Shown: positions 5,811 to 58,432 of the stretch, piece after piece
How positions within the stretch are numbered: position 1 is the first letter of the stretch
How the letters are laid out: each line of letters begins with the position of its first letter
Source: a virus
DNA: 64,000 nt
Direction: 5' to 3' (one strand)
IMG/VR virus record: IMGVR_UViG_3300030103_002937
Coordinates: 28,967-92,966 of that record
The notes under the pieces: model-generated
What the model saw: only the letters and a program-made list of their open reading frames with translations
Told to the model about the DNA's origin: nothing
Databases searched by the model: none
Made by a program: the position numbers and the translations under genes

Positions 5811-6053
5811 TTATTCGTTTTTTGTACCGTTTTTACGAGGGTTCATACCCCCTCTATTCCTATGCGCTGTTACAAAAGTCCCCGTATAGTGATCATAGTC
5901 CTTGCCTTTTAAGCTTTTGCCGGCTTTTTTAGCTGCACGGCGCTTTTTTTGGCTATCTGCTCGCTTTTCTTTGCGGTCATCACTGTTAGCATACCTTAAA
6001 TCACGCTCTTTTTTAGCTTTTGCGGCTGCTGGAGATAACTTTTGCTTACCCAT
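5811..6053 (-). CDS. Small basic protein with degenerate HNH-like C-terminus
   Basis: Lys/Arg-rich; GKDYDH...AHRNRG. Confidence 0.55.
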   Translation of the reverse strand: MGKQKLSPAAAKAKKERDLRYANSDDRKEKRADSQKKRRAAKKAGKSLKGKDYDHYTGTFVTAHRNRGGMNPRKNGTKNE

Positions 6054-6116
6054 TTAATTCTTTTTACGTATATAATAGTAATTTACACACTTTTTACCGT
6101 TTTTACAAACATCGAG

Positions 6117-6162
6117 GTGACAATTGCTACCTATTATATATACCTTAATAGGCTACCGTCAC
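6117..6162. promoter_or_regulatory. Spaced inverted repeat, copy 1 (GTGACAATTGC-N24-GCTACCGTCAC)
   Basis: Similar to the copies at 7282 and 13239. Confidence 0.6.
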
Positions 6163-6296
6163 ATATTTTGTATACCTAGATAATTTAGGAGGTGCTTTTG
6201 TAAGAAAAGTATCAGATATTTAGGGTTTTGGTGTTATATACTATTTTTTAACTACATACAACAATACGGAAACCATTTTATTTACGCCACCTCCCC

Positions 6297-6372
6297 TGCT
6301 TTTTTCTGAATATTCCGGGATTTTTTGGCTTTTCCCAGGGTTTTCCTGCAGATTTCGGGAACTTTCTGGGAT
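6297..6372. repeat. Degenerate 10-11 bp periodic T-tract repeats (TTTTCYNGGR-like)
   Basis: ttttctgaat attccgggat tttttggct tttcccaggg ttttcctgca gatttcggga actttctggg, at the divergence point of the two arms. Confidence 0.55.
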
Positions 6373-6415
6373 AGCTGCTAGCGCAGCGTGTATAGCAAAG
6401 AGCCGCTCGCCGTTT

Positions 6416-6449
6416 CGCAGACTAACCACGATCCTGCACCGATAATATA
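6416..6449 (+). promoter_or_regulatory. Early promoter-like motif, copy 1 (consensus TACARACTAAMCACG-N10-GATAATATA)
   Basis: Eight copies with an invariant 10-nt spacer upstream of early genes. Confidence 0.75.
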
Positions 6450-6470
6450 TTTGAATCTAAATTATACGAT

Positions 6471-6623
6471 ATGAGAGTACGAATTGACACGAAGAATTGG
6501 ATGGGCAACTATAGCAGCCGGGTCCAAACATTCAACGGGGAATCCCATCTGAACAACTACATCCGGTTCATGGGCCACCATGAGATCTATTCCAAGATCA
6601 TTGGGGTTGAGGTTCTGGATTAA
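6471..6623 (+). CDS. Small early protein (50 aa)
   Basis: MRVRIDTKNWMG..., directly after motif copy 1; below the ORF-track cutoff. Confidence 0.6.
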   Translation: MRVRIDTKNWMGNYSSRVQTFNGESHLNNYIRFMGHHEIYSKIIGVEVLD

Positions 6624-6664
6624 CCAGGGCACCGCCTGCGGTGTATAGCAACGCGTATAGCATT

Positions 6665-6698
6665 TACAGACTAACCACGATACTACTTCGATAATATA
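6665..6698 (+). promoter_or_regulatory. Early promoter-like motif, copy 2
   Basis: TACAGACTAACCACG-N10-GATAATATA. Confidence 0.8.
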
Positions 6699-6723
6699 TA
6701 TGTAATGAATTAAAATGTAAATT

Positions 6724-6864
6724 ATGAGTATAAACGATAAACTAAAACAACTGTACCAAAGATACGACTTTCTAATTGACTGTGACAGATGGGTACAAGC
6801 TAAGACAGTTCAAAAAGAAATAAGAGAATTAGAACTATTACGTGAAGAAAGTTATACAAACTAA
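6724..6864 (+). CDS. Small early protein (46 aa)
   Basis: MSINDKLKQL...; its stop codon lies inside motif copy 3. Confidence 0.55.
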   Translation: MSINDKLKQLYQRYDFLIDCDRWVQAKTVQKEIRELELLREESYTN

Positions 6865-6888
6865 ACACGAAGTAAAGTAGATAATATA
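6855..6888 (+). promoter_or_regulatory. Early promoter-like motif, copy 3
   Basis: TACAAACTAAACACG-N10-GATAATATA. Confidence 0.8.
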
Positions 6889-6915
6889 AATGTAAACAAT
6901 TAAAATTAAATAATT

Positions 6916-7167
6916 ATGAGTAAAGTAAATAACACACTAGTAAGTAAAAGATTTATCATTCGCAAATCTTTAATCGGTAAAAATGTCAATGTCTCATTCA
7001 CAGACTATGACGGTAAAACACACAAGTACTCACATGACAAAGTATACGAGTTATGTAAAGAAAGATTCGACAACATGAAATGTTTCCAAAAGTACAAGTA
7101 TTACTCTCAAACATTCGCACTACCGAAGTTTGTACGCGAGTTAGGTGATGAGGTTCTAGTCAAATAG
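6916..7167 (+). CDS. Hypothetical early protein
   Basis: 83-aa ORF after a promoter motif, A-rich start. Confidence 0.75.
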   Translation: MSKVNNTLVSKRFIIRKSLIGKNVNVSFTDYDGKTHKYSHDKVYELCKERFDNMKCFQKYKYYSQTFALPKFVRELGDEVLVK

Positions 7168-7281
7168 AACTTCACCCCTAGCGGGGGCTTCACCGCCCTC
7201 GTGTATAGCATATGTATAGCAAAAGTGAGGTGGAGTGATGAAGTGTAAAGTCAGGTAAACAAATGATCGGTAGCGAAAAGT

Positions 7282-7326
7282 GCGACACTAGCCTGTTATT
7301 AAAGATACTTAACTAGCTAATGTCAC
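7282..7326. promoter_or_regulatory. Spaced inverted repeat, copy 2 (GCGACACTAGC-N23-GCTAATGTCAC)
   Basis: Intergenic; right arm identical to that of copy 3. Confidence 0.65.
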
Positions 7327-7420
7327 ATTTTATTGCTTCACCATTCTATTAGATGACTAGAGAGGTGTTGTTATATATGTAACATACTTTTATATTCCAT
7401 ACTAACTATATATTTTTTTT

Positions 7421-7454
7421 TACAGTTTGAACACGAATCGGTGACGATAATATA
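7421..7454 (+). promoter_or_regulatory. Early promoter-like motif, copy 4
   Basis: TACAGTTTGAACACG-N10-GATAATATA. Confidence 0.75.
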
Positions 7455-7478
7455 TATGAAACTTTAAAACACATTACT

Positions 7479-7682
7479 ATGGCTTATGAACTAATCCTTA
7501 CCGATGTTCAAATGAAAAATTTAATCGGTAATCTAGAAATGCAAATGCACCAGAACGGTACAGATTTTACAGACACTACCGACCCACTGGCAAGTATTTT
7601 CTGCGCCGCAATGTTCGGAAACGAGTATATGAACAGTGACGAGAAAGGCGAACTCGAAGAGTATTACGAAACACATTACTAA
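7479..7682 (+). CDS. Hypothetical acidic early protein
   Basis: ORF track; follows a promoter motif. Confidence 0.7.
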   Translation: MAYELILTDVQMKNLIGNLEMQMHQNGTDFTDTTDPLASIFCAAMFGNEYMNSDEKGELEEYYETHY

Positions 7683-7692
7683 AATAATAATT

Positions 7693-7827
7693 ATGAGAAG
7701 TATAAACCTTACTGAAAACGATTGTACTTTCGTACACTATGTATTACGTCAATATGCTAAGACTACACCGAGCTTAGACAGTGAAGACAGAGAAGCAATA
7801 TATGCGGTAGCAAATAAATTCAAGTAA
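7693..7827 (+). CDS. Hypothetical early protein (likely start MRSINLTEND)
   Basis: ATG preceded by an A-rich leader inside track ORF 7636..7827. Confidence 0.6.
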   Translation: MRSINLTENDCTFVHYVLRQYAKTTPSLDSEDREAIYAVANKFK

Positions 7828-7831
7828 AGTT

Positions 7832-7969
7832 ATGGATATAGATATAGACAAGTATATAGACTGGTACAGTATTACTGACGACTATGAGTTGGCCAGTGGC
7901 GACATTTCACCTGAAGATTACTTTAAACTTCAAGAAATATTAGAACGGTATATTAAAACAAATAAATAA
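7832..7969 (+). CDS. Small early protein (45 aa)
   Basis: MDIDIDKYIDWY...; fills the gap between neighbours. Confidence 0.55.
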   Translation: MDIDIDKYIDWYSITDDYELASGDISPEDYFKLQEILERYIKTNK

Positions 7970-7971
7970 TT

Positions 7972-8169
7972 ATGAACAGTATAAAATTTTTAAAGGAGAA
8001 TAAAATACGATTGAACGGTGTGGTTTATAAACCTTACCTGATCGGTAACCTACCACCGAGCTTTGCATTCAAAGAGGAGTGGAAGACAGAAACTGACGGT
8101 ACAGAATATGTAGTCGAAGGTATTAACGAGTGGTTTAACTTTAAAGGATTTACCTATGTCAGTGAGTAA
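7972..8169 (+). CDS. Hypothetical early protein
   Basis: ORF track; operon packing. Confidence 0.7.
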   Translation: MNSIKFLKENKIRLNGVVYKPYLIGNLPPSFAFKEEWKTETDGTEYVVEGINEWFNFKGFTYVSE

Positions 8170-8365
8170 TATGAGAGAGCTACTAGCCTACAGTGCGGCG
8201 AAAAAAACCGAACGTGCTGAAGAGTGGAATGCGGAACGGTTAGCACACGGATATTGCAGAGGTCTGAATCACCGCGAATATATGCGGTATAGAGTAAACG
8301 GTAAGTCGGTATTCCGCAAAGGTAAAGACTTCTCACACCGCGAAAGGTGGAAATATACAAACTAA
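8156..8365 (+). CDS. Hypothetical basic early protein (start possibly 8171)
   Basis: ORF track; stop lies inside motif copy 5. Confidence 0.65.
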   Translation: MSVSNMRELLAYSAAKKTERAEEWNAERLAHGYCRGLNHREYMRYRVNGKSVFRKGKDFSHRERWKYTN

Positions 8366-8389
8366 ATACGAACACCTAACGATAATATA
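8356..8389 (+). promoter_or_regulatory. Early promoter-like motif, copy 5
   Basis: TACAAACTAAATACG-N10-GATAATATA. Confidence 0.8.
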
Positions 8390-8408
8390 AATATAAAATA
8401 CAAAAGTT

Positions 8409-8609
8409 ATGCCAAATATGAGTTATTGCAGGTACGAAAATACCTCGCTAGATATGCAAGATGTAGTAGATACATTATACGACAGTGATGTCACCGAAGA
8501 CTTAAGTACACACGAGACACGTGGCTTAAGAACCATACTCGAACTAGCTAAAGATATTGTAGATATGGAAGATAAGATAAATAACATACTTGAAAATCAA
8601 GAGCAATGA
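8409..8609 (+). CDS. Small phage protein (MxNMSYCRxENT type)
   Basis: N-terminus MPNMSYCRYENT. Confidence 0.7.
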   Translation: MPNMSYCRYENTSLDMQDVVDTLYDSDVTEDLSTHETRGLRTILELAKDIVDMEDKINNILENQEQ

Positions 8610-8842
8610 GCAGTATTAATACAACCCCACTTACAGTGCGCGACGTATCACTAACGGTAAGTTACTATCACCATGCCGGTGAACCAGCAGTTATGTATTA
8701 CAAAGACGGGTCAGGCCACCCAGGTGAACCACCTTCAATTGAAGTGCAAGCGGTATACGCAGGTGAGATAGATATTTATGAACTGTTAGACGCAGATATG
8801 TTAGATTATATAGAGGGTAAATTAATAGAAATACACTACTAA
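8606..8842 (+). CDS. Hypothetical early protein
   Basis: ATGA overlap with the previous gene. Confidence 0.7.
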   Translation: MSSINTTPLTVRDVSLTVSYYHHAGEPAVMYYKDGSGHPGEPPSIEVQAVYAGEIDIYELLDADMLDYIEGKLIEIHY

Positions 8843-9018
8843 TGAAACAACATTATATAACAGTATTAGATTTTACCGATGGCAGAATATATCAGTATGA
8901 TGCTTGGGAAGGAGCTCTTTCACACGACGACTATGAAGCATTACTAGATTTAAAAGGGCATAAGCTAAACAGTATTGAATGGATGGTTCATGAGAACAGT
9001 GAAATAATTACAAGCTAA
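8842..9018 (+). CDS. Small early protein (58 aa)
   Basis: TAATG coupling; MKQHYITVLDF...; stop lies inside motif copy 6. Confidence 0.65.
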   Translation: MKQHYITVLDFTDGRIYQYDAWEGALSHDDYEALLDLKGHKLNSIEWMVHENSEIITS

Positions 9019-9042
9019 ACACGAACCACATACGATAATATA
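9009..9042 (+). promoter_or_regulatory. Early promoter-like motif, copy 6
   Basis: TACAAGCTAAACACG-N10-GATAATATA; ATG follows 3 nt later. Confidence 0.8.
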
Positions 9043-9045
9043 AGT

Positions 9046-9237
9046 ATGAAAAAATGTAAATGTAACAATATAATACCGGCGGGGCGAGTAAACCTCGGGT
9101 ATAACACATGCACAACTTGTTCAAACGTTGAACAGTATAGCTACGTACCCATTATCGCACATAAGACCGGTAATACTATTCAAATCGTCAGTCAGGCAAC
9201 AAGTGCCGCAGTGCACAGGTCATGGCGACGTAAATAG
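9046..9237 (+). CDS. Small zinc-finger protein (DksA/TraR C4-like)
   Basis: CKC..IPAGR..LGY..CTTC. Confidence 0.6.
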   Translation: MKKCKCNNIIPAGRVNLGYNTCTTCSNVEQYSYVPIIAHKTGNTIQIVSQATSAAVHRSWRRK

Positions 9238-9298
9238 TTGTGTGATTAAAGGCGTAATTCCTTAGCGGGATGCGAGAAACGGCTCGATGAACACAACA
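9237..9298 (+). ncRNA. Putative structured RNA closed by a 7-bp stem (GTTGTGT/ACACAAC + A)
   Basis: Perfect closing stem with two internal hairpins; GC-rich island in an intergenic gap. Confidence 0.45.
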
Positions 9299-9349
9299 GA
9301 GGGGCAAGAGATGCGGGTTACACACCGGTAAATGGCGCGCGGCCCCTCA
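9299..9349 (+). ncRNA. Putative structured RNA closed by a 7-bp stem (GAGGGGC/GCCCCTC + A)
   Basis: Perfect closing stem, abutting both neighbours. Confidence 0.45.
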
Positions 9350-9351
9350 CT

Positions 9352-9431
9352 GGGCGTGAAATGGGTAGACAAGAAATAGGAGGCGAAAGCCACACTAACT
9401 TGTAACGCAGGTTCGATTCCTGCCACGTCCA
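9352..9431 (+). ncRNA. tRNA-like RNA resembling an isolated tmRNA tRNA-like domain (Ala acceptor)
   Basis: Acceptor GGGCGTG/CACGTCC-A with G3-U70; T arm GCAGG-TTCGATT-CCTGC; stemless 10-nt D loop; ACAAG/CTTGT helix capped by GGC-GAAA-GCC; no anticodon loop. Confidence 0.75.
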
Positions 9432-9446
9432 CTAAAATTATAAATT

Positions 9447-9716
9447 ATGAGTGAAATAACTAACCGGCCCTATAATGGGTGGAATAATTACGCAACCTTT
9501 CGTGTTCACAACGATATACTAAACGGATATCAGTGGGATGAAGACGAGGAAATAAACGTAGACTTACTAGAAGCAATAGTAGAAAATGCGGTATTTGAAA
9601 ACAGCGGAGCAGTTGGTTTAATTGTAGACTACGCCAACTTGTTCTTAAATAATGTAGATTGGGAAGAACTAGTAGAAGTATATAACTATGACAGAGAAGC
9701 AGAACAATCAAGCTAA
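9447..9716 (+). CDS. Phage protein (YNGWxNYxT type)
   Basis: PYNGWNNYAT...VDWEEL. Confidence 0.75.
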   Translation: MSEITNRPYNGWNNYATFRVHNDILNGYQWDEDEEINVDLLEAIVENAVFENSGAVGLIVDYANLFLNNVDWEELVEVYNYDREAEQSS

Positions 9717-9948
9717 GAGGTTAGCAGAGCTTAAAGATAAGCACGGTATTGTCTTACACGGCAACTCCGATGCTATACATCTCCTCGACCGTATCGAAAC
9801 GGTAATACGCGACCAAATACTTGAAACGATTACCGAAGAAATGTTTGAAGACGGTATAGTTGAAGAGACCGACGATAAGTATAGTTTACTATTATCTGTA
9901 CTATACTACGAGCTAATTTACAAACTAAACACGGATGCTAAACGATAA
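9688..9948 (+). CDS. Hypothetical early protein
   Basis: ORF track. Confidence 0.65.
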   Translation: MTEKQNNQAKRLAELKDKHGIVLHGNSDAIHLLDRIETVIRDQILETITEEMFEDGIVEETDDKYSLLLSVLYYELIYKLNTDAKR

Positions 9949-9952
9949 TATA
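9919..9952 (+). promoter_or_regulatory. Early promoter-like motif, copy 7
   Basis: TACAAACTAAACACG-N10-GATAATATA; ATG at 9956. Confidence 0.8.
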
Positions 9953-9955
9953 AGT

Positions 9956-10174
9956 ATGAAAGAAAAAGCAACACTATATAACAGACTCAAACCCAACTAC
10001 TTAGGTAAGTTAGTTGAGCAGCGTGAAAAGTTACCAAATATGGTAGCCGCAGCTGAACGAGCAATGAATGAAAACGTGTGGGTAATTAGCCTTACCGTTG
10101 GCGAGATGTGCACAATATGTGACGTACTCGAAATAGACTGGAACAAGTTATTTTTAATTTTTGAATATGAGTAA
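9956..10174 (+). CDS. Hypothetical protein, HTH-like C-terminus
   Basis: Start re-called at MKEKATLY, just after the promoter motif; LTVGEMCTICDVLEI. Confidence 0.6.
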   Translation: MKEKATLYNRLKPNYLGKLVEQREKLPNMVAAAERAMNENVWVISLTVGEMCTICDVLEIDWNKLFLIFEYE

Positions 10175-10637
10175 AAAGAAGTACATTACAGACGAGTTAA
10201 TCGAAGAGCGATTAAAAAAGCGAGGCCTGTCTTCATACGACGGTTATGGAGCAGAAGACGAAGATGCAGACTATAAAAAGCTATGTAAACACTATGACCT
10301 TGAAATAATAGATCGGTGGCATCAAAGAGCGGATTATTTTATGTACACTGAAACAACTGCAGACGGTTACGAAGTATGGGTTGCAACAGAACACCCAAAC
10401 GGTGATGTTAGCATAAATGAAGATGTTCACTACTATGACAGTGACCTTGCTGAAGTTCTTATGGAATGGATTAGGTACGGCGGAGCCACTATATACGTAG
10501 ACGATATAGAAGCGTATTATGTAACCGAAGCACTTGAAACTATGTGGGAAAACATGATTGACAGTATTAAAGACGAAATAATTATTGAATTACAAGATGA
10601 AGGATATGAATACGAAGACGCAGAAGCCACTGCCTAA
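10161..10637 (+). CDS. Hypothetical acidic protein
   Basis: 158-aa ORF (start probably 10167). Confidence 0.75.
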   Translation: MNMSKKKYITDELIEERLKKRGLSSYDGYGAEDEDADYKKLCKHYDLEIIDRWHQRADYFMYTETTADGYEVWVATEHPNGDVSINEDVHYYDSDLAEVLMEWIRYGGATIYVDDIEAYYVTEALETMWENMIDSIKDEIIIELQDEGYEYEDAEATA

Positions 10638-10842
10638 ATGGTTTGACGGAACAGTATATGAAAAGGGTGATACAGTATCAAACCCTTACACCGGCGACAA
10701 AGCCGAACTATCAGCAGAAGAGTTATCAATGTATGACGTAATCAAAGGTGCTGAATTTACACGAAGCTATAAACTTTTGCAGAAAGGTTTGGATTGGTTT
10801 AGACAAGCAAACCCCTCTGCATATATGACATTATTAGATTAA
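10585..10842 (+). CDS. Small phage protein
   Basis: LPKWFDG...GLDWFR..NP.AYM.LLD; start probably 10606. Confidence 0.7.
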   Translation: MNYKMKDMNTKTQKPLPKWFDGTVYEKGDTVSNPYTGDKAELSAEELSMYDVIKGAEFTRSYKLLQKGLDWFRQANPSAYMTLLD

Positions 10843-10844
10843 TT

Positions 10845-11000
10845 ATGAAATATCCAGATGCAGATAAACACTTTTGGGCTAGTATGACAAAGAGTGTTAT
10901 AAGAGTAGGAGGCTATTGTCTCATTTTTATTGACATTGAAGTAGCAGCGGGTATACTTATCGCTAGCGAAGTAATCGGAGTAATAGAAGAATTAGTATGA
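10845..11000 (+). CDS. Small membrane protein (51 aa)
   Basis: MKYPDADKHFW...hydrophobic...GVIEELV; ATGA coupling to the next gene. Confidence 0.6.
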   Translation: MKYPDADKHFWASMTKSVIRVGGYCLIFIDIEVAAGILIASEVIGVIEELV

Positions 11001-11602
11001 ATTTATTAACACAGAACGGGAAACTCAAGAAGACAAGCAAACAATTGGGAGTACGTGTATTCAATTTCGGAATACCAGCTTACAAGTCTGCGTCCGGCAA
11101 ACTTACTTGCCCTATGGCTGACTCCTGCGTAAAATTTTGTTACGCTAAAAAGGGAGCATACATATGGAGCAACGTGCAGCCGGCGTTTGAAAAGCGCTAC
11201 CAGCTCACCAAAACGGATGAGTTTGTAGAGGCAATGAACGTAGAGATTAAACGCAAGCGACCAGACTATGTGCGGGTCCATGATAGCGGAGACTACTACA
11301 GTCCCAAATATCTAAAGAAGTGGATCGAGATTGCTATACACAACCCGTCTGTTAATTTTTACAGTTATACTAATATGGTAGATATGTTTCATAAAACCGA
11401 TCTGCCACCTAACTTCGATATTATATTCAGTGATGCCGGTAAACAGGTGCATATGATTGATTATGAGCAAGATAGGTACACAAAGATATTCAAATCCGAT
11501 CAAGAGTTAGATCGTGCCGGGTTTGTAAATGCAAGCAAGGTAGATTTGTTTGCAACGAAATGGTTCAGTAAGAACAAAAAAATTGGACTAGTATATCACT
11601 AA
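10997..11602 (+). CDS. GP88-like protein (radical-SAM-like Cys cluster)
   Basis: N.KL.K, TCPMADSCVKFCYAKKG, RVHDSGD, FYSYT. Confidence 0.75.
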   Translation: MNLLTQNGKLKKTSKQLGVRVFNFGIPAYKSASGKLTCPMADSCVKFCYAKKGAYIWSNVQPAFEKRYQLTKTDEFVEAMNVEIKRKRPDYVRVHDSGDYYSPKYLKKWIEIAIHNPSVNFYSYTNMVDMFHKTDLPPNFDIIFSDAGKQVHMIDYEQDRYTKIFKSDQELDRAGFVNASKVDLFATKWFSKNKKIGLVYH

Positions 11603-11871
11603 TGAGTAAAACAATATCACAAAAGTATATAAGAGATTATATAACAGAACATTACGGTGAGTTACGCCATGATGTAAAGCGTATGGCTAAAGCATGCAGA
11701 ATTGTAGCTAAACAGTATGGTTATACACCTAAACAAATCTTTCATTTTATGATTGAACAAGAAAGCTTAGGTACTACTCATAGTTATGGTTTCAATACTG
11801 CTTATGGGCGTGAAATACGCGAGGAGTTTGAAGTACAATATCATGAAATGTATAAAGAAATTACAAACTAA
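11602..11871 (+). CDS. Hypothetical protein
   Basis: TAATG coupling; stop lies inside motif copy 8. Confidence 0.7.
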   Translation: MSKTISQKYIRDYITEHYGELRHDVKRMAKACRIVAKQYGYTPKQIFHFMIEQESLGTTHSYGFNTAYGREIREEFEVQYHEMYKEITN

Positions 11872-11895
11872 ACACGGATGGACACTGATAATATA
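11862..11895 (+). promoter_or_regulatory. Early promoter-like motif, copy 8
   Basis: TACAAACTAAACACG-N10-GATAATATA. Confidence 0.8.
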
Positions 11896-12111
11896 AAAGA
11901 TGAAGCACATACAATGATATGGGCACGATTGTCTACTGCTGAGCTAGATTTGCAACGAGCAAAAGACTGGGACGGCAGAGGTCATTTAGATACAGACGAA
12001 AGCTTTGAGGAGACAAAAGAAGCACATATTGAAATGGCAAGAAGACGAGTAAATATTTATCATTACTTGCTAACACAAGTAGAAAAAGATATGGCAGAAG
12101 ATGACGAATAA
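11878..12111 (+). CDS. Hypothetical protein
   Basis: ORF track; start uncertain because it overlaps the promoter motif. Confidence 0.6.
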   Translation: MDTDNIKDEAHTMIWARLSTAELDLQRAKDWDGRGHLDTDESFEETKEAHIEMARRRVNIYHYLLTQVEKDMAEDDE

Positions 12112-12376
12112 AGAAATGGAACGTTTAGCTGATCTTATAGTTACAAAAATAATAGAAAAGCAAAACGAAATTGATGCAGCCTTCTTTGAAGGTATGAATG
12201 AAGCTATTGATAAAGGCGCGGAATTTTCAATTGAAAGTCAGGAAGATATATTGTTAGGTGAGCTTGCAAGACTGCAAACTATTTTAGCAAAGTATGAACA
12301 CGAAGAACATTATGAAAAGGCAGCAATAATAGCGAATAAAATTAAATGGTTAGAAAATAAAATAAGTAAATTATGA
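12101..12376 (+). CDS. Protein with C-terminal UVR (UvrB/C) coiled-coil motif
   Basis: EHEEHYEKAAIIANKIKWLE. Confidence 0.65.
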   Translation: MTNKEMERLADLIVTKIIEKQNEIDAAFFEGMNEAIDKGAEFSIESQEDILLGELARLQTILAKYEHEEHYEKAAIIANKIKWLENKISKL

Positions 12377-12597
12377 GCAAAGTAGGAATTGAAACAGTAA
12401 CAGTAGACTCTAGCTTAGTATCAGTAATGACCTATGCTAGAAAAGCAAAAATGTTGTATGTAACATTTAAAAACGGTACAATATATTTGTACAACAATGT
12501 AGATCATGCAACCTATGAAGACGTACGTAATTCAGAATCTATAGGTAAAGCATTACATAAAGAAGTGTTTGGTGTATTCAAATATGAAAAACTGTAA
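12373..12597 (+). CDS. KTSC-domain protein
   Basis: VDSSLV...Y......LYVTFKNG..Y.Y.NV....Y......SIGK. Confidence 0.8.
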   Translation: MSKVGIETVTVDSSLVSVMTYARKAKMLYVTFKNGTIYLYNNVDHATYEDVRNSESIGKALHKEVFGVFKYEKL

Positions 12598-13264: not shown

Positions 13265-13283
13265 AATAATAGGCTAATGTCAC
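13239..13283. promoter_or_regulatory. Spaced inverted repeat, copy 3 (GCGACGATAGC-N23-GCTAATGTCAC), overlapping the ATG of the HTH gene
   Basis: Right arm contains the ATG at 13277. Confidence 0.65.
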
Positions 13284-13891
13284 GTAACATGAGGTACTTA
13301 CATAGTAACAAAATTATATACAGGAGAGGTCCAATAAGTGACCAACCTAGCGAAACCTTCGAGTGGGGTGCGTTCTATGAAACAGGTACACATGAGTGTT
13401 ACGAATTGTTTAGGAGTAAGGCTAAGATAACAAGTTATAAATCACTGAAGTGGCATTTACTTGTACTCTGGTACCTTAACCCACAACTCGACCAAGATAA
13501 GTTTGAACAGCTTGCATACTATATAGCGGAAAAGGATAATGGTTTTATAACCTTTTCAATACCTGAAATGTTACTCAAAAAGATTATTTATGATGTGAGC
13601 ATGGAAGATCTTGAATATCCGCCAAAAAATAGGATTAGAAAAGTTATATTTAAAGACAGTACTAATCTTACTAAATCTCAAAAGCTATCGATAGTAGGCA
13701 AGCTGATTGGTCGTAATAGTAAAGCGCAGCCAGAGGATATATACGAAACAATGTTACTTATCCATGATAAAAGCGAAAAGATTACAATAACAAAGATTGC
13801 GCGGATATTAAATGTGTCAACCCGTACTATCTACAGAAACATGACACATGAACTCACGAAAGAAAAAGAACTTTTGAATGAAGAAATATAA
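13277..13891 (+). CDS. DNA-binding protein with C-terminal HTH (possible replication initiator or regulator)
   Basis: KITITKIARILNVSTRTIYRNM. Confidence 0.75.
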   Translation: MSRNMRYLHSNKIIYRRGPISDQPSETFEWGAFYETGTHECYELFRSKAKITSYKSLKWHLLVLWYLNPQLDQDKFEQLAYYIAEKDNGFITFSIPEMLLKKIIYDVSMEDLEYPPKNRIRKVIFKDSTNLTKSQKLSIVGKLIGRNSKAQPEDIYETMLLIHDKSEKITITKIARILNVSTRTIYRNMTHELTKEKELLNEEI

Positions 13892-14639
13892 TGTACAAAA
13901 CTATATTCGGTATAAAGAAGATTTAGAGGTAACAATAAAATTAATACCTAAAAAAGAATTTCACGAATATACGAGAACAGAACTTACAACGGTATTTTTA
14001 CCGCTTGTAGAAAACATAGCGAGAAAGTTTTCAACTACGCAGCAAGCATCAGGTGTAATGACTATTAATGACCTTATACAGGAAGGGGCTATAGGCTTGC
14101 AAGCAGCAGTTGATAGAATTGAATGGCAAACAATACACGAATCGGAAGACAAAGAAAAAACACTTAAGTCTTTCTTTGCAAAGCGTATTCGCGGTGCTAT
14201 TCGTAGAGCTATTGATATAAACAGAGGCGACATGCGCATACCAGAATATAAATTAAATGACATACGCAAAAACTTTGGTAAAGACCGCAAAATAGTGCAG
14301 ACATTTTTTAATCAGGTGTTTATGTCTATTGACGAAAACTTTAACGACGAGGGTGATAATCCTTTGTTTCAAGTGCCAGATAAATCAGAGCCATATAATA
14401 TTGCATTACTAAATGCTTACCTGTTAGGCATAATGAAAGAGTACTTAACAGATAAAGAATATGAAGTGCTCCGTATGAGCTATGGTTTAGATTGTGATAA
14501 ATATCCGGCAAAGAACATTGCTAAAGAGTTAGGCATAGATGGCGTAAGTAATTATGTACGTGTATCTGAGCTTAAAAAGTCAGCAATTGAAAAGCTTATA
14601 GATAATGTTTCACCTGACCAAGTTATTGATTATCTTTAA
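13878..14639 (+). CDS. Phage sigma-70-family RNA polymerase sigma factor
   Basis: Region 2 (LVENIARKF, DLIQEG.IGL..AV, IRGAIRRAI) and region 4 (LTDKEYEVL...YGL...IAKELG...RVSELKKSAIEKL). Confidence 0.85.
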   Translation: MKKYNVQNYIRYKEDLEVTIKLIPKKEFHEYTRTELTTVFLPLVENIARKFSTTQQASGVMTINDLIQEGAIGLQAAVDRIEWQTIHESEDKEKTLKSFFAKRIRGAIRRAIDINRGDMRIPEYKLNDIRKNFGKDRKIVQTFFNQVFMSIDENFNDEGDNPLFQVPDKSEPYNIALLNAYLLGIMKEYLTDKEYEVLRMSYGLDCDKYPAKNIAKELGIDGVSNYVRVSELKKSAIEKLIDNVSPDQVIDYL

Positions 14640-18192: not shown

Positions 18193-18464
18193 GTAAAAAG
18201 AAACAATGGTGGACTCCAATGCCTTCATATGCAAGATCACCTGAAGAAGAAGCTGCATACCAATGGTGTGTAAAGAATAATATAAAAATATCACCGTTTG
18301 CAGCATCAAGTGATAAAGTTAACAATGAATGGTGGATTGATATTGAAACAAACAATCTAAACAAAAGAAGTCCTTATAAGTATAACAGAGACCAAATATG
18401 GTCTAAAATATTTGAATTATATGTTTTCTACTATAAGAAATACGGATTACGAAATACAGTATAG
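18177..18464 (+). CDS. Hypothetical protein
   Basis: ORF track, between helicase and ThyA homologue. Confidence 0.6.
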   Translation: MGSGLSKKKQWWTPMPSYARSPEEEAAYQWCVKNNIKISPFAASSDKVNNEWWIDIETNNLNKRSPYKYNRDQIWSKIFELYVFYYKKYGLRNTV

Positions 18465-19212
18465 AGATATTATACAAAGTTGCTTAAGCAATGAAGCTGT
18501 ATATAGAGAAGACCGAACAGGTATTGGTTGCTATTCAGTATTTAATAAACAAATAGATATTGAAGTTGGTAACAAGTTTCCTGTAATTACCGGTCGTAAA
18601 ATGTTTCCTAAAGTATTCAATACTGAAATGCTTTGGTTTTTAAATGGTGAAACAAATATAAAAAGATTCAAAGATGCAGGCGTAAAGATATGGGACGCTT
18701 GGGCTGACGAAGATGGCGAACTGGGGCCTGTTTATGGTCATCAGCTTAGAAACTTCAGCGGTCGAGGTTATGATCAGCTAGAAAGCGTTATAGATAGCTT
18801 AAAAAGCGACCCAGACAGTCGTCGCCATGTAATATCGCTATGGAATCCGGTGCAACTTGAATATATGGCTTTGCCACCTTGCTATTTATATTTTCAGTTC
18901 TTTGTTGAAAACGGCAAACTTAATATGTTTGTTGTACAAAGATCAGGTGATATGTATTTAGGTGTGCCATACGACATTGCACTATTTACACTAATTATGA
19001 ATTATGTAGGTGAAAAAACAGGATTGTTACCAAACAGATTATCAGTTAATATAGTTGACGCTCATGTATACAAAAATCAATTAGAAGCAGTTAATAAGTA
19101 TTTAGACACAAATATTTTATCAACACCTTCATATAGATTTTGTACAGAACGAGGCGCCCGACTAATTGATTATCAGTCTGGTCCGCATATTCCAGCACCT
19201 GTAGCAGTATAA
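18412..19212 (+). CDS. Thymidylate synthase (ThyA) homologue, probably dCMP-specific
   Basis: DRTGIG, EMLWFLNG, IWDAWAD, LGPVYG, DSRR, LPPC, QRSGD, DAHVY; Asp in place of Asn177 and Tyr in place of His147. Confidence 0.9.
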   Translation: MNYMFSTIRNTDYEIQYRDIIQSCLSNEAVYREDRTGIGCYSVFNKQIDIEVGNKFPVITGRKMFPKVFNTEMLWFLNGETNIKRFKDAGVKIWDAWADEDGELGPVYGHQLRNFSGRGYDQLESVIDSLKSDPDSRRHVISLWNPVQLEYMALPPCYLYFQFFVENGKLNMFVVQRSGDMYLGVPYDIALFTLIMNYVGEKTGLLPNRLSVNIVDAHVYKNQLEAVNKYLDTNILSTPSYRFCTERGARLIDYQSGPHIPAPVAV

Positions 19213-19215
19213 ACT

Positions 19216-19971
19216 ATGTATTATTTATATCACATTCCGGGTAAAAAGATCGGAGTTACACGTAATCTTAATAAACGCGTAACGGAAACCCAGGGCTATA
19301 AGCCTACCGAATATGAAGTTCTTGATCAGAGTGAAGATATTAGTTATATATCATACCGTGAAATAGAACTTCAAAAGTCTTATGGCTACAGAGTAGATCG
19401 GAAACTTTATAAAACTTTATTTAATAAAATGAAAATAAACCCTACAGACCAAACAAGTACATTTCCTGTGCCAGTCAATAAGCTAAAAGGTAGACTTATG
19501 GATTGTCTTGGATTAAAATGGAAAACACCACAAGGTTACGAATTTGAAATAACAACAAAAGCTATCCCGTGGATTGTACGAAACGCTAAGACTTCAATGT
19601 ATAACGAGGATAGAAGCTATATTTATAATAAAGCGTTTTACGAGGCTTTTCAAGCCGAACCCGCTATTCCAGTCAACAACGTATTCGAGCATATACGTGA
19701 GTGGGCACGCGACAGAGGTATATATGATTCTGGCGATGTGAAGACACAACTAATCAAACTATATGAAGAGACGGGAGAACTCGCTCAGGCGGTCCTTAAG
19801 AAAGACGATGACAGTATTATCGACGCTATCGGTGATAGTGTTGTGGTACTCACCAATCTTGCCACACTGGCAGGTTATGATATTGAGCATTGCATTAATA
19901 CCGCCTATGGTGAAATTAGGAGCCGAACTGGATCCATGGTAAACGGAACCTTTGTAAAAGAGCAATTATGA
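19216..19971 (+). CDS. MazG-like NTP pyrophosphohydrolase fused to GIY-YIG-like and unknown N-terminal domains
   Basis: N-terminal YYLY...KIGVTRNL.KR; C-terminal IREWA.DRG...QL.KL.EE.GELA......D..IDAIGD. Confidence 0.85.
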   Translation: MYYLYHIPGKKIGVTRNLNKRVTETQGYKPTEYEVLDQSEDISYISYREIELQKSYGYRVDRKLYKTLFNKMKINPTDQTSTFPVPVNKLKGRLMDCLGLKWKTPQGYEFEITTKAIPWIVRNAKTSMYNEDRSYIYNKAFYEAFQAEPAIPVNNVFEHIREWARDRGIYDSGDVKTQLIKLYEETGELAQAVLKKDDDSIIDAIGDSVVVLTNLATLAGYDIEHCINTAYGEIRSRTGSMVNGTFVKEQL

Positions 19972-20207
19972 ATCCAAGAGAAGACAAAATAATTAAAAGA
20001 GTTGTCGAAAAGATTCTACAACGCTCAGAAGCTGGCTACAAAAAATATGGAGTTGGCTTAGACAAAGATGACCAAACATTGGACACATGGCTAAATCACT
20101 TGCAAGAAGAATTAATGGATGCCGTTAATTATATTGAAAAAGCAAGAATGGTCCTACGCAGTGAAATTGAAGAATGTTATTTAAGAGATGCGAAGGAAAC
20201 CATATAA
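19968..20207 (+). CDS. Small all-alpha protein with an NTP-PPase-like EExxD motif
   Basis: RS..G.KKYG..L......WL.HLQEELMDA..Y. Confidence 0.65.
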   Translation: MNPREDKIIKRVVEKILQRSEAGYKKYGVGLDKDDQTLDTWLNHLQEELMDAVNYIEKARMVLRSEIEECYLRDAKETI

Positions 20208-20898: not shown

Positions 20899-21028
20899 AG
20901 ATTGGTCATTAAGTTTAGGAACATATCCAGGAATATTATTTGGTATGCGTACGTATCATGGTGACACGCATTCTCAAACTGTGTTTTACTTACCGTTTAT
21001 TGATGTTGCTTACGAAGTTGAAAAATAA
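20867..21028 (+). CDS. Small hypothetical protein
   Basis: WSLSLG.YPGILFG.R.Y...YLPFID; TAATG-coupled to nrdB. Confidence 0.6.
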   Translation: MLKNTKGRATKDWSLSLGTYPGILFGMRTYHGDTHSQTVFYLPFIDVAYEVEK

Positions 21029-21987
21029 TGGGATTGTTTGATGAGCGCGTAGCGTACAAACCGTTTGAGTATCCTGATTATTATACAGAGGGCTGGTTAA
21101 AACAGGCTCAGGCATTTTGGTTGCATACTGAAATACCAATGCAAAGTGACATAAAAGATTGGAAAGAAAAATTAACACCTGAAGAAAAAAACTTAGTAGG
21201 CAATATATTATTAGGTTTTGCTCAGACAGAATGTGCAGTATCAGATTACTGGACACAAAAAGTCGTATCATGGTTTCCTAAACATGAAATACAGCAAATG
21301 GCTATGATGTTTGGTTCACAAGAAACAATACATGCTGTAGCTTACAGTTATTTAAATGAAACATTAGGACTTGAAGATTATGAAGCTTTTTTACACGAGC
21401 CGGCGACTGCTGGAAGGTTTGACAATCTGGTTAGTTATAGTGGTACCAATCCTGTCGGGATTGGCCGCTCTCTTGCTATCTTTAGTGCTTTTGCTGAAGG
21501 GGTTAGCTTATATTCTGCATTTGCTGTTCTTTATAGTTTCCAGTTAAGAAATTTACTGAAAGGTATAGGTCAACAAATGAAATGGAGTGTACGAGATGAA
21601 TCACTTCACAGTAAAATGGGTTGTAAGCTTTTCCGCGATATGTGCAAAGAAACACCTGGTTTACTAGAAGATTGTCAAAAAGATATAGCTGAAGCTGCTA
21701 AAACAATGGTAGACTTAGAAGAAAAGTATATTGACAAAATGTTTGAAATGGGTGATATTGAAAACCTAAAAGCATCTGATCTTAAACAATTTATTAGAAA
21801 AAGAGCAAATGAAAAATTACAAGAGCTTGGATATTCAGCCTTCTTCGATGTCGATACTGAAGCGGCTGATAACCTTGATTGGTTTTATCATCTTACCGGT
21901 GGTCATACTCATACAGATTTCTTCGCTATTCGTCCAACTGATTACTCAAAGGCTAACGAAGGAGAAGACTTTGAAGACATTTGGTGA
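21028..21987 (+). CDS. nrdB: Ribonucleotide reductase class I beta subunit
   Basis: FW...E, ETIHAVAY (radical Tyr), EGVSLYSAF, RDESLH, DFF. Confidence 0.95.
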   Translation: MGLFDERVAYKPFEYPDYYTEGWLKQAQAFWLHTEIPMQSDIKDWKEKLTPEEKNLVGNILLGFAQTECAVSDYWTQKVVSWFPKHEIQQMAMMFGSQETIHAVAYSYLNETLGLEDYEAFLHEPATAGRFDNLVSYSGTNPVGIGRSLAIFSAFAEGVSLYSAFAVLYSFQLRNLLKGIGQQMKWSVRDESLHSKMGCKLFRDMCKETPGLLEDCQKDIAEAAKTMVDLEEKYIDKMFEMGDIENLKASDLKQFIRKRANEKLQELGYSAFFDVDTEAADNLDWFYHLTGGHTHTDFFAIRPTDYSKANEGEDFEDIW

Positions 21988-22019
21988 AATAATAAATCAA
22001 GAAGATATAGACGAATTAT

Positions 22020-22259
22020 ATGAAAGGACAAAAACAGAGTAGAATTGATAATGTTGAAAAGCGCTTAGCTGCAATGACAAGAGTATTACAAGAACTTATT
22101 AATGAAGTTCAAAATACTAAAACAATTGCACTAGGTGTACATCAAACAATAAAAGAAATGCCTAACTATGAAGAAGCGATCGAAAAGCTTAAAGAGAAAG
22201 CTGCTGGAGAGCATGGTGAAGGAGAGGAAATTATCTCCGACGGAAAGATTAGCGAATAG
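22020..22259 (+). CDS. Coiled-coil hypothetical protein
   Basis: ORF track. Confidence 0.65.
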   Translation: MKGQKQSRIDNVEKRLAAMTRVLQELINEVQNTKTIALGVHQTIKEMPNYEEAIEKLKEKAAGEHGEGEEIISDGKISE

Positions 22260-22446
22260 GCTGGGTTACATGGGGACTGGTTTTTTTGTAACTGCTCCCC
22301 ATATGCTACCTGACACACCAGGTGTAGTAATATATTTTTTAGCTGGTTTGTTTTGTACACCGCAAGTGTGGGTTGCAAAGCAATGGAACTTAGTAATAGT
22401 AAACTTAAATGTAATGATAGCCTACGCGCTACTATTTTTTAAATGA
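22213..22446 (+). CDS. Small membrane protein with about 3 TM helices and a PQ motif
   Basis: Hydrophobic segments; LFCTPQVWVAKQWNLV; start re-called at MVKERK. Confidence 0.6.
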   Translation: MVKERKLSPTERLANRLGYMGTGFFVTAPHMLPDTPGVVIYFLAGLFCTPQVWVAKQWNLVIVNLNVMIAYALLFFK

Positions 22447-24212
22447 TGTGGAATAATGAATGGAAAAAAGGTGTCGACTACCCATCTTGGGGAGACACGG
22501 AAGTATACAAGAAGACTATATCCGGGGGATATCTACATATGGGAGAGTCTCCAAGAGACGCATACAAAAGAGTCGCAACAACAGTTGCAAGACGATTGTA
22601 CAAACCAGAGCTAGCAGATACATTTTTTGATTACATTTGGAAAGGGTGGTTGTGTTTAGCGTCTCCGGTTTTATCTAATACAGGTACCGATCGTGGTTTA
22701 CCTATATCATGCTTTGGGATTGACGTAGGAGACAGCATACACGATATTGGTACAAAGAATTTAGAAATGATGATGCTTGCCAAACACGGTGGGGGTGTTG
22801 GTATCGGAGTTAACATGATTCGTCCCGCCGGAGCTAAAATCACAGGAAATGGAACATCAGATGGAGTCGTACCCTTCTGCAAAATCTACGATAGCACAAT
22901 TCTTGCAACCAATCAAGGATCAGTTAGACGCGGAGCTGCAAGCGTTAATATCAACATTGACCACGGAGATTTTGAAGAGTGGCTTGAAATACGAGAGCCT
23001 AAAGGAGATGTCAACAGACAATCGCTTAACTTACATCAGTGCGCAGTGGTTGGCGATAAGTTTATGCGAAAGCTTGAACGAGGAGATGCAGAAGCTAGAT
23101 CTAAATGGAGTAAACTTCTTAGAAAAAGGAAAAGCACCGGAGAACCGTATATCCTTTTTAAAGGAAACACTAATAAAGCAAATCCAGCAGCGTACAAAGA
23201 CAACGCTTTAAAAGTGCATATGACTAATATCTGTAGCGAAATAGTATTGCACACAGATGAGTCGCATAGCTTTGTTTGCTGTTTAAGCAGTTTAAATGTC
23301 ACTAAGTATGAAGAATGGAAGAATACAAACCTTATCTACGATGCTATCTGGTTTCTTGATGGAGTCTTGGAAGAGTTTATTCAGAAGGCTAAAGGGCTTA
23401 CAGGTTTTGGAAACTCTGTTAGATCTGCTGAGAAGGGCAGAGCACTTGGCTTGGGAGTCTTGGGTTGGCATACGTACCTGCAACAAAACGGTGTACCCTT
23501 TGAAGGATTACAAGCACAGTTCCAGACAAGACGTATATTTAGCCAAATTAAGATTGAATCTGAACGAGCATCAAGAGCGCTTGCTGAGGTTTATGGTGAA
23601 CCTCTTTGGTGTCGTGGCACTGGCTTTCGCAACACTCATCTTAGGGCTGTTGCTCCTACTGTGTCTAATAGTAAGCTTGCCGGTAATGTTAGTCCTGGTG
23701 TTGAGCCTTGGGCCGCTAATGTTTTCACTGAACAAAGCGCGAAGGGTACGTTCATTAGGAAAAACAGAGAACTAGAAAAAGTACTTCGTAAAGTTGGAAT
23801 CAACGTCAAAGAAACGTGGGATAAAATTATGGCCGACGGCGGGAGTATACAAGATATCGAAGAGTTAGATAACTGGGGATATGTTAATGGTAAGCTTACG
23901 CTTATTGAGGACTCAAAATCGTACGATCTAACGGGCTTTGATAAAGTTAAAGATGTATTTAAAACCTTTAAAGAAATAAATCAATTAGAGCTAGTTAATC
24001 AAGCCGGCATACGTCAGCAGTATATTGACCAATCTGTCAGTTTGAATTTAGCTTTTCCTTCTGAAGCGTCGCCTAAGTGGATTAATCAAGTTCATATGGA
24101 CGCCTGGAAAAAAGGTATTAAAACATTATATTACATGCGGACAGAGTCTGTACTGAGAGGCGATATAGCTGCAAGTGCTATGGACCCAGACTGTGTTGCT
24201 TGTGATGGGTAA
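22443..24212 (+). CDS. nrdA: Ribonucleotide reductase class I alpha subunit (no ATP cone)
   Basis: SPVLSN.G, PISCF, GGGVG, NQGSVRRGA, TNICSEI, VAPT.S, YY, C-terminal CVAC. Confidence 0.95.
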   Translation: MMWNNEWKKGVDYPSWGDTEVYKKTISGGYLHMGESPRDAYKRVATTVARRLYKPELADTFFDYIWKGWLCLASPVLSNTGTDRGLPISCFGIDVGDSIHDIGTKNLEMMMLAKHGGGVGIGVNMIRPAGAKITGNGTSDGVVPFCKIYDSTILATNQGSVRRGAASVNINIDHGDFEEWLEIREPKGDVNRQSLNLHQCAVVGDKFMRKLERGDAEARSKWSKLLRKRKSTGEPYILFKGNTNKANPAAYKDNALKVHMTNICSEIVLHTDESHSFVCCLSSLNVTKYEEWKNTNLIYDAIWFLDGVLEEFIQKAKGLTGFGNSVRSAEKGRALGLGVLGWHTYLQQNGVPFEGLQAQFQTRRIFSQIKIESERASRALAEVYGEPLWCRGTGFRNTHLRAVAPTVSNSKLAGNVSPGVEPWAANVFTEQSAKGTFIRKNRELEKVLRKVGINVKETWDKIMADGGSIQDIEELDNWGYVNGKLTLIEDSKSYDLTGFDKVKDVFKTFKEINQLELVNQAGIRQQYIDQSVSLNLAFPSEASPKWINQVHMDAWKKGIKTLYYMRTESVLRGDIAASAMDPDCVACDG

Positions 24213-53696: not shown

Positions 53697-53968
53697 TTTG
53701 ATCTACCCTCTGCAAAGCCTTTAAATGATTTAGCTTTAGCTGCTTCGTTTTCTCCTTCTAATAATGATCTTTCTTCGTCTATGCGTGTTAATATTTCAAA
53801 CGCATCAAAGATTGCTAACTTTTTAGTAGCCGCAGCATTTTTAAGCCTATCCGCTGAAAGGTCGTCTTCAGTATCTGTTATAATCTGCTCTTCAGCAACG
53901 CGAATTAATTCATTAACTGCTTTTTGCCCAGCTCGGATTATATTCCTCTTCGTGTCCTTTACGTTCAT
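53693..53968 (-). CDS. Putative terminase small subunit
   Basis: Helical 91-aa ORF with ATGA overlap on terL. Confidence 0.5.
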   Translation of the reverse strand: MNVKDTKRNIIRAGQKAVNELIRVAEEQIITDTEDDLSADRLKNAAATKKLAIFDAFEILTRIDEERSLLEGENEAAKAKSFKGFAEGRSK

Positions 53969-54518
53969 ACTTAATAGCTATATCATTTGATTTCATACAA
54001 TAAAGACGTTCATCGTCTATAATAAATTCCCATTCGCTACTAGGCGTAAAGCCTACCAGGTCTCCTGGGTTAATTTGAAGCGCTTCTAGCGCATTATTAC
54101 CATACTTTAGTATACCAATATGCTTTTGCTCTTTTTCGTTTGAATATGAGCTTGTTTCTTTAATTGGCTTTATAAAGCATCTATTATTAACCATGACCCA
54201 ATTTTTATTTTTTTTATAGCCGTACACTTGGTCTGGATTAACAAAATACATATGATCTTTAAAATATGTACTACCATTTTTTTCTTTACCTTTGATATCA
54301 TAATATCTTCTAAAGATATTGTGGTGTATTAATATGATATCGCCAGCTTTTATACCTGTATTAAAAGCAGCAGGGGTAGAAATTACTATAGCTTCTTTAT
54401 TTATATGACGAAAGCTTTCTATACTTGTATTTAGTAGCAGGCTAGTGTCGCCTACTTTTTTAGTATTATTATATCGTTCGCCTTTGGGTTTAACTATAAA
54501 TTGGTATAATGATTTCAT
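53913..54518 (-). CDS. Tandem GroES-like (co-chaperonin fold) protein
   Basis: FIVKP...GIKAGD.I..HHN and FIKPI...INPGD.VGF...E...IDDERLY.M...DI. Confidence 0.65.
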   Translation of the reverse strand: MKSLYQFIVKPKGERYNNTKKVGDTSLLLNTSIESFRHINKEAIVISTPAAFNTGIKAGDIILIHHNIFRRYYDIKGKEKNGSTYFKDHMYFVNPDQVYGYKKNKNWVMVNNRCFIKPIKETSSYSNEKEQKHIGILKYGNNALEALQINPGDLVGFTPSSEWEFIIDDERLYCMKSNDIAIKYERKGHEEEYNPSWAKSS

Positions 54519-58175: not shown

Positions 58176-58432
58176 AATATAACGACTACATCCTGCGCTT
58201 TGATTACATTGTACACTTTATTTTCTAACTCAATGGAATGGCCGGCGTGCCTATCATAATAAATAGCATCGCCAGCCTTTATTCCCACTATATCGGCGCC
58301 CGCTGATATTACGCTTGCTTTTGCGTATCTTATATCTTCACGGGCATTTTCTGCAATTAGCAGACCGCCTTCTGTTTTTTGTGAACCTTGTTTTTCTTTT
58401 TCTACTATTAAGTAATATCCGATCGCTTTCAT
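58172..58432 (-). CDS. groES: Co-chaperonin GroES
   Basis: KTEGGLLI mobile loop; GIKAGD.IYY; DV. Confidence 0.85.
   Translation of the reverse strand: MKAIGYYLIVEKEKQGSQKTEGGLLIAENAREDIRYAKASVISAGADIVGIKAGDAIYYDRHAGHSIELENKVYNVIKAQDVVVIL

Follow-up and report, generated by a model that had tools for sequence, protein, structure and literature searches.

Natural enzymes of the ThyA (thymidylate synthase) family that methylate deoxycytidine monophosphate (dCMP), their residue signature at positions 177 and 147 and their link with pyrophosphohydrolases have already been published. According to the proposed discriminators, replacement of Asn177 by Asp denotes the use of dCMP, Leu143 a methyl product, Asp or Glu at position 143 a hydroxymethyl product, and replacement of Asp169 by Asn a 5-hydroxy-dCMP synthase (PMC13326640, 2026 NAR); the equation of Leu three residues before the catalytic Cys with the thymidylate synthase (methyl) state, and of Asp or Glu with the hydroxymethylases, is made in two studies (PMC6400193, PMC13326640). 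The ternary complex of the T4 dCMP hydroxymethylase showed, besides the acidic residue at this place, a Ser-x-Tyr sequence, Val instead of Trp83 and the lack of a C-terminal tail (PMC6400193), the tail being the element of ThyA that closes the folate site for hydride transfer (PMC6400193). In the MetaGPA analysis, positions 177 and 147 told best whether a ThyA homologue belonged to a cytosine-modified or an unmodified phage contig, Asp177 being the modified state (PMC8670742). When seven metavirome homologues with Asp177 were expressed together with the T4 deoxynucleoside monophosphate (dNMP) kinase, five of them, as well as the enzyme of phage Xp12, gave 5-methyldeoxycytidine (5-methyl-dC) in plasmid DNA (bioRxiv 10.1101/2024.12.05.627091). 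Here we describe a ThyA homologue with Asp177 and Tyr147, adjoined by a gene for a MazG-type nucleoside triphosphate (NTP) pyrophosphohydrolase, in a 64,000-nucleotide stretch of viral DNA (the window; positions 28,967 to 92,966 of the 92,966-bp IMG/VR record IMGVR_UViG_3300030103_002937). With modest confidence, we lean towards the view that this homologue is a folate-dependent dCMP C5-methyltransferase (5-methyl-dCMP synthase), that the MazG-type enzyme would supply its dCMP, and that 5-methylcytosine would enter the phage DNA at replication.

The fold of the ThyA homologue may be taken as fixed, since its closest matches in the PDB are solved thymidylate synthases (E ~1e-60). PF00303 (thymidylate synthase) covers it over the full length (profile positions 2-266, E 8.7e-75), and PHROG 160 matches it at 2.9e-84. 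Its near homologues are 263 amino acids long and begin with MFSTI, so the true start is probably the ATG rather than the first in-frame TTG of the open reading frame (ORF; coordinates of all features are collected in Table 1). The protein was aligned with E. coli ThyA, the thymidylate synthases of Xp12 and PaMx74, and T4 gp42 (residues are numbered here as in E. coli ThyA); identity amounts to 40% with the E. coli enzyme, 27% with that of Xp12 and 25% with T4 gp42. Glu58, Trp80, Trp83, Tyr94, Arg126/127, Leu143, Cys146, Arg166, Ser167, Asp169, His207 and the C-terminal tail are kept in this alignment, and Gln165 and the Pro-Val-Tyr94 sequence are present as well. Asp169 stands in the context QRSGD, and both the IWDAW motif and the APVAV terminus are found. 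As regards the features of a canonical ThyA, the full-length PF00303 match and the catalytic residues are there, with Asp and Tyr instead of Asn177 and His147. Cys146 is encoded by TGC at 18880 and Tyr147 by TAT at 18883, while the dCMP-signature motif reads QRSGDMYLGVPYD, Asp177 being GAC at 18973. The original prediction, a model's reading of the same DNA, had named both substitutions together with the retained folate and tail apparatus of the thymidylate synthase type, and the alignment and codons bear it out.

In the proposed reaction, Asp177 would recognise and protonate cytosine in place of uracil, whereas Tyr147 would stand in for the His that contacts O4 of uracil. Because all residues for folate hydride transfer are kept, a methyl group on dCMP, with dihydrofolate released, is the expected product. 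The marks of the T4 gp42-type hydroxymethylases (EC 2.1.2.8) were not found in the window protein, which has Leu143, Pro-Val-Tyr94 and the full tail instead, nor was the Asp169-to-Asn mark of the RB69 gp48 type. The residue features expected of a dCMP methyltransferase (EC 2.1.1.54) are, on the other hand, present, namely Asp177, a non-acidic residue at 143, Asp169 and the elements sealing the folate site. The residues thus predict a dCMP methyltransferase and are at odds with the three other activities considered, those of a hydroxymethylase, a 5-hydroxy-dCMP synthase and a canonical enzyme acting on deoxyuridine monophosphate (dUMP). The preference for methylation over hydroxymethylation, proposed before from the IWDxW motif and the terminus, accords with the published rules (PMC13326640, PMC6400193, PMC8670742, bioRxiv 10.1101/2024.12.05.627091).

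Among the described enzymes, those of Xp12 and PaMx74 (EC 2.1.1.54) share with the window protein the Pro-Tyr-Asp motif (Tyr176, Asp177) and the replacement of His147, and a ribonucleotide reductase is likewise encoded in their genomes; they differ from it by Asn143, Pro147, Phe83, Leu165, a loop insertion and another C-terminus. The window enzyme is nearer to the engineered E. coli ThyA N177D and L. casei thymidylate synthase N229D, in which a single Asp switch was placed on a canonical scaffold, as it keeps Leu143, Trp83, Gln165 and the tail. Unlike them it is natural, and it bears in addition the conserved changes H147Y and F176Y, which may tune dCMP catalysis. T4 gp42 is also an Asp-bearing ThyA homologue that modifies C5 before replication, but it has Asp145, Ser94 and Val85, is devoid of the tail and employs water, not hydride. 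The metavirome homologues of the MetaGPA studies (PMC8670742; bioRxiv 10.1101/2024.12.05.627091) have the same diagnostic positions, 177 and 147; LPPCY and PYD, looked for in the MetaGPA supplements, did not occur there.

The presence of Asp177 and Tyr147 is not a sequencing slip, since the signature is shared by the 120 nearest homologues and by 18 IMG/VR relatives. In the 120 best homologues from a set of 5.8 billion proteins, PPCY and PYD occur in all wherever those regions are present. A strict pattern matched 108 of the 120 (PYD in 108 and PPCY in 107, the odd one, P0105, reading LPPCY and reflecting an artefact of the regular expression), and those inspected of the remaining 12 have LPPCY and PYD with the adjacent Leu-Gly changed to Ala-Gly. 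Asp was found at position 177 in the 120 homologues wherever the region is present, with no Asn seen, and the LPPCY/PYD pair is present in 18 of 18 related IMG/VR loci, down to 47% identity; the two residues go together across related phages. All close homologues examined come from metagenomes or viral contigs, and the 90% cluster of the window protein comprises 333 sequences (NCBI, JGI, ENA, Logan, Tara).

In a broader sample, the 150 nearest 50%-identity representatives among 1.84 billion proteins, Asp177 occurs in about 40, with Tyr, Pro or His at position 147, and the others read Leu143, His147, Phe or Tyr176 and Asn177; Tyr176 alone was also found in 18 canonical Asn177 enzymes. Two trees, both computed without the trait columns, place the window protein in a clade of 14 rows, all of them Leu143/Tyr147/Tyr176/Asp177, with a support of 96 in FastTree and a Shimodaira-Hasegawa-like approximate likelihood ratio (SH-aLRT) value of 99 in IQ-TREE. 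The best 80 matches in the genomes of 185,579 prokaryotic species (one genome for each) are at most 47% identical to it and all carry Leu, His, Phe and Asn at these four positions; as far as sampled, the Tyr147/Asp177 type of ThyA appears to be viral only. The free trees set the Xp12 and PaMx74 enzymes apart from the window type, on a long branch. Since joining all of them in one clade is not rejected by the approximately unbiased (AU) test (p 0.75), we assert neither a separate nor a shared origin.

Linkage with the neighbouring gene is a further line of evidence. That this gene encodes a MazG-type pyrophosphatase, as was proposed originally, is borne out by a Pfam score of 27.6 bits (cut-off 22), a PHROG match of 1e-32 and a match of the family profile to PDB entry 1vmg at 8e-7, and the EETGE and DAIGD motifs of the domain are invariant. 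It lies directly 3' of the ThyA homologue in 17 of the 18 related viral loci. These belong to at least three genome backbones: phages similar to that of the window (about 63 kb), a 34-kb type and the type of locus L017. In locus L008 the contig ends within the gene, which is seen at that place in the complete relative G010. The eighteenth locus (L021, in genome G023; 6010-12558), a clade member of 47% identity, has a gene of the dUTPase/dCTP-deaminase superfamily in place of MazG, with a 5'-3' exonuclease, a dCMP-deaminase-family gene and Pol A nearby, which is the arrangement of published 5-methylcytosine clusters. The metavirome homologues assayed previously had been picked for linkage to a dCMP-deaminase-family gene, whereas here a deaminase accompanies only this distant member.

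By analogy, the pairing supports a functional link like that of T4 gp56 with gp42 or of PaMx74 gp53 with gp52. In T4, the dCTPase gp56 yields dCMP and removes dCTP (deoxycytidine triphosphate); in PaMx74, the gene of the pyrophosphohydrolase gp53 adjoins that of the ThyA-type enzyme gp52; and a pyrophosphohydrolase of the MazG/PRA-PH type co-occurs with the MetaGPA homologues. Most likely, the MazG-type enzyme would convert dCTP (or other deoxynucleoside triphosphates, dNTPs) to the monophosphate, and this action would feed the methylase and reduce the competing dCTP. Direct kinship of the MazG protein with PaMx74 gp53, the HAD hydrolase of Xp12 or PRA-PH of the elemo phages was also considered and rejected, as no significant similarity was obtained by BLASTP.

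Over the whole 92,966-bp record, no match was found to dCMP/MafB19 deaminases (PF00383, PF14437), dihydrofolate reductase (DHFR; PF00186) or ThyX, to thymidylate kinase, Pol A or Pol B, or to C5, Dam or N6/N4 DNA methyltransferases; the earlier remark that polymerase, kinase and DHFR are missing, made for the window, thus holds beyond it. Of the Walker A motifs in a suitable position, only those of the terminase and the two primase-helicases stood out, other matches lying late in small or structural ORFs. The complete relatives G010 (62,928 bp, circular as judged from a 127-bp end overlap), G012 (63,624 bp) and G016 (34,002 bp) likewise gave no deaminase, DHFR or Pol A. In contrast, Xp12 and PaMx74 have a deaminase and DHFR, PaMx74 also a DNA polymerase of its own, and T4 encodes a kinase, a polymerase and glucosyltransferases of its own. 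Should 5-methylcytosine be made for DNA, the remaining steps would have to fall to host kinases, host DHFR and the host replisome, because no phage kinase, DHFR or polymerase was found; these host enzymes would bring 5-methylcytosine into the phage DNA during replication. More tentatively, and with some doubt on our part, the Asp177/Tyr147 ThyA and MazG cassette might suffice for 5-methylcytosine to replace cytosine in the phages of about 63 kb, with Cmk, Ndk, FolA and the replisome provided by the host. In that case, full C5 methylation might extend to a considerable part of the DNA of marine Flavobacteriia phages, since the clade is abundant in marine metagenomes (the number of sequences given above is for the 90% cluster alone).

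Observed and expected palindrome counts per genome served as a proxy for cytosine modification. In this phage GATC occurs 137 times against 144 expected, CATG 104 times against 152 and GGCC 45 times against 73; the corresponding values are 136 and 150 for GATC, and 69 and 145 for CATG, in the relative G010, and 71 and 71 for GATC in L015 and L018 taken together, all of which encode the ThyA homologue. Three relatives or neighbours without it are almost or wholly devoid of GATC, namely MW202828, which has ThyX instead (0 observed, 202 expected), the 32-kb Flavobacterium phage elemoE (28 and 93) and a co-assembled phage B (0 and 46). The normal level of GATC in this phage and its near relatives, for which no methyltransferase gene accounts, fits a protective cytosine modification, but this evidence is weak and mixed. 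The 34-kb type, represented by G016 (L113 and L114), has the same gene pair, and its counts are 1 against 63 for GATC, 0 against 58 for CATG, 8 against 76 for CTAG and 0 against 20 for GCGC; in L017, which also has the ThyA homologue, GATC is seen 0 times against 25. The claim that the phage carries cytosine-modified DNA is thus in keeping with these statistics in the lineage of the window and disfavoured by them in another lineage with the same genes. A near-identical locus, L014, was found to have an N6/N4 DNA methylase gene as well.

Several of these observations weigh against the proposed methylation of dCMP for DNA. The strong palindrome avoidance in G016 and L017 would be unexpected if all cytosines were methylated, and it indicates that the gene pair is not always tied to relaxed avoidance and that hosts differ; even in the phage studied here CATG, GGCC and ACGT are moderately depleted. 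The partners of the Xp12-type module (dNMP kinase, DHFR, deaminase and polymerase) were not found in it. The Leu143 rule is inexact, as the validated Xp12 enzyme departs from it and has, moreover, a different residue at 147 and a different C-terminus. Finally, a preference of the MazG protein for dCTP is something that we only infer, because its domain family is common in other phages, those of Staphylococcus, Paenibacillus and Streptococcus.

An alternative, rather unlikely in our estimation, would be a route to thymidylate, in which 5-methyl-dCMP is deaminated to thymidine monophosphate (dTMP) by a host dCMP deaminase, so that, with the help of MazG, surplus dCTP would be turned into thymidine triphosphate for a genome of 64% A+T and the DNA would stay essentially unmodified. 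The ThyA homologue is the record's sole gene of the thymidylate synthase type, and the close relative MW202828 has ThyX in its replication module instead. A ComEB-like dCMP deaminase was detected in five of five Flavobacteriales genomes tested (~E 1e-26), although the acceptance of 5-methyl-dCMP by the flavobacterial enzyme is an assumption. Synthesis of thymidylate from 5-methyl-dC nucleotides has been reported for Xp12 (bioRxiv 10.1101/2024.12.05.627091), but the published pathway uses a phage deaminase acting on 5-methyl-dCTP, and no phage deaminase was found here. The palindromes point in both directions: lineages with the same gene pair still avoid C-containing sites very strongly, as this route would allow, whereas the tolerance of GATC in the lineage of the window, where no methyltransferase gene was found, fits modification better.

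It is less probable still that the protein is an ordinary or dual-specificity thymidylate synthase, which tolerates Asp177 and Tyr147 and keeps the conversion of dUMP to dTMP. Its similarity to canonical ThyA, without loss of any catalytic residue, its place among dNTP supply genes that include ribonucleotide reductase and the occurrence of Tyr176 in canonical enzymes are in line with such a function; however, Asp177 is invariant over a large clade and tracks cytosine-modified contigs (PMC8670742), and the 80 nearest cellular enzymes all have Asn and His. A dCMP hydroxymethylase, or another C5 chemistry (5-hydroxymethyl or 5-hydroxy) feeding hypermodification, is very improbable: Asp177 is indeed common to T4 gp42 and RB69 gp48 (alignment; PMC13326640) and two of the seven assayed Asp177 homologues gave no 5-methyl-dC (bioRxiv 10.1101/2024.12.05.627091), but the window protein has Leu in place of the acidic residue at -3 of the Cys and Pro-Val-Tyr in place of Ser-x-Tyr, and keeps Trp83, Asp169 and the full tail, and the scanned window ORFs gave no glycosyl-, carbamoyl- or other transferase.

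Compared with the published systems, this locus makes a modest addition, namely a large lineage in which Tyr147, Tyr176 and Asp177 are conserved on a near-canonical thymidylate synthase scaffold, apparently restricted to viruses, in a minimal two-gene context in phages without a polymerase gene. The gain is thus a new lineage and context, not a new principle. Automated annotation as thymidylate synthase, the name used for homologues wherever the sources name them, masks a probable base-modification system. If methylation of dCMP for phage DNA is true, the DNA of these abundant marine phages would resist many restriction enzymes and behave differently in virome analyses by bisulfite, enzymatic conversion or nanopore sequencing, and no gene set as small as this pair would have been linked before to cytosine methylation ahead of replication.

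Table 1. Positions of the ThyA homologue, its motifs and other features, numbered within the window
Feature	Position	Strand	Remarks
ORF of the ThyA homologue	18412-19212	+	first in-frame start is TTG 18412
ThyA-family enzyme, predicted dCMP C5-methyltransferase	18421-19212	+	full-length PF00303 match; 263 amino acids from ATG 18421
Codons of Leu143-Pro-Pro-Cys146-Tyr147 (LPPCY)	18871-18885	+	Leu143 and catalytic Cys kept, His147 replaced by Tyr
Codons of Asp169-Asp177 (DMYLGVPYD)	18949-18975	+	Asp169 kept, Phe176 replaced by Tyr, Asn177 by Asp (GAC 18973)
C-terminal tail HIPAPVAV	19186-19209	+	identical to E. coli at Ile258, Ala260, Val262 and Ala263
Two-domain protein with C-terminal MazG-type NTP pyrophosphohydrolase (~19663-19968)	19216-19971	+	251 amino acids; Pfam, PHROG and PDB matches
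N-terminal domain of the MazG protein	19216-19650	+	145 amino acids
Helical-hairpin protein	19968-20207	+	79 amino acids; conserved only in nearer relatives; HLQEELMDA motif conserved
Class I ribonucleotide reductase, both subunits	21028-24212	+	small subunit 21028-21987, PF00268 5.9e-60; large subunit 22443-24212, PF02867 4.9e-88
Helix-turn-helix (HTH) protein, then a sigma-like protein	13277-14639	+	weak, below-threshold similarity of the second to sigma-70 regions 2 and 4
GroEL-like chaperonin and GroES-like co-chaperonin, listed jointly	58429-59979 and 53913-54518	-	PHROG 2.2e-135 for the GroEL-like protein

The N-terminal part of the MazG protein forms a separate conserved domain with weak matches to T5orf172/MUG113 (GIY-YIG-like), and this fusion is optional, since L017 has the MazG domain alone, in a protein of 100 amino acids. 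The 79-amino-acid ORF that follows had been taken for a second NTP pyrophosphatase on account of an EExxD motif, and this could not be sustained: Pfam gave no match, hhalign against the MazG family a probability of 1.8%, a search with its AlphaFold2 (AF2) model in Foldseek no matches, and a profile search of the PDB nothing relevant, while a protein atlas returned unnamed viral clusters only. The AF2 model consists of two helices (predicted local distance difference test, pLDDT, 72). The ribonucleotide reductase genes are syntenic in relatives and make up the remainder of the phage deoxynucleotide supply module.

The terminase is 63% identical to that of the uncultured circular podovirus MW202828.1 (60,850 bp) and about 45% identical to those of the Flavobacterium elemo phages, with weaker matches to Cellulophaga phages and with Tenacibaculum and Maribacter phages also among the matches. 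From these matches, the host is likely a member of the marine Flavobacteriia. In MW202828.1, which is the nearest relative with a sequence, ThyX is encoded at 8958-9632 (L107).

The 92,966-bp record seems to join two phages, as a chimera or a scaffold. Terminase, portal, capsid set and primase-helicase are each present twice, and position 1495 of the record is a 10-N gap; no GATC is seen over record positions 1-32,712 and 138 copies follow, and homology to the complete relative G010 is limited to positions 35,815-90,084. The junction lies near window positions -560 to 3,750 (28.4-32.7 kb of the record), and tail-fibre-like repeated segments (82-97% identical) are found at both record ends and at the junction. 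The ThyA homologue is placed well within the part matching G010, and seven close relatives share its gene order.

Two further features of the window may be mentioned. GroEL- and GroES-like genes are common to MW202828 and the Flavobacterium elemo phages. The pair of HTH and sigma-like genes lies just upstream of the replication genes for Erf, an exonuclease and a primase-helicase.

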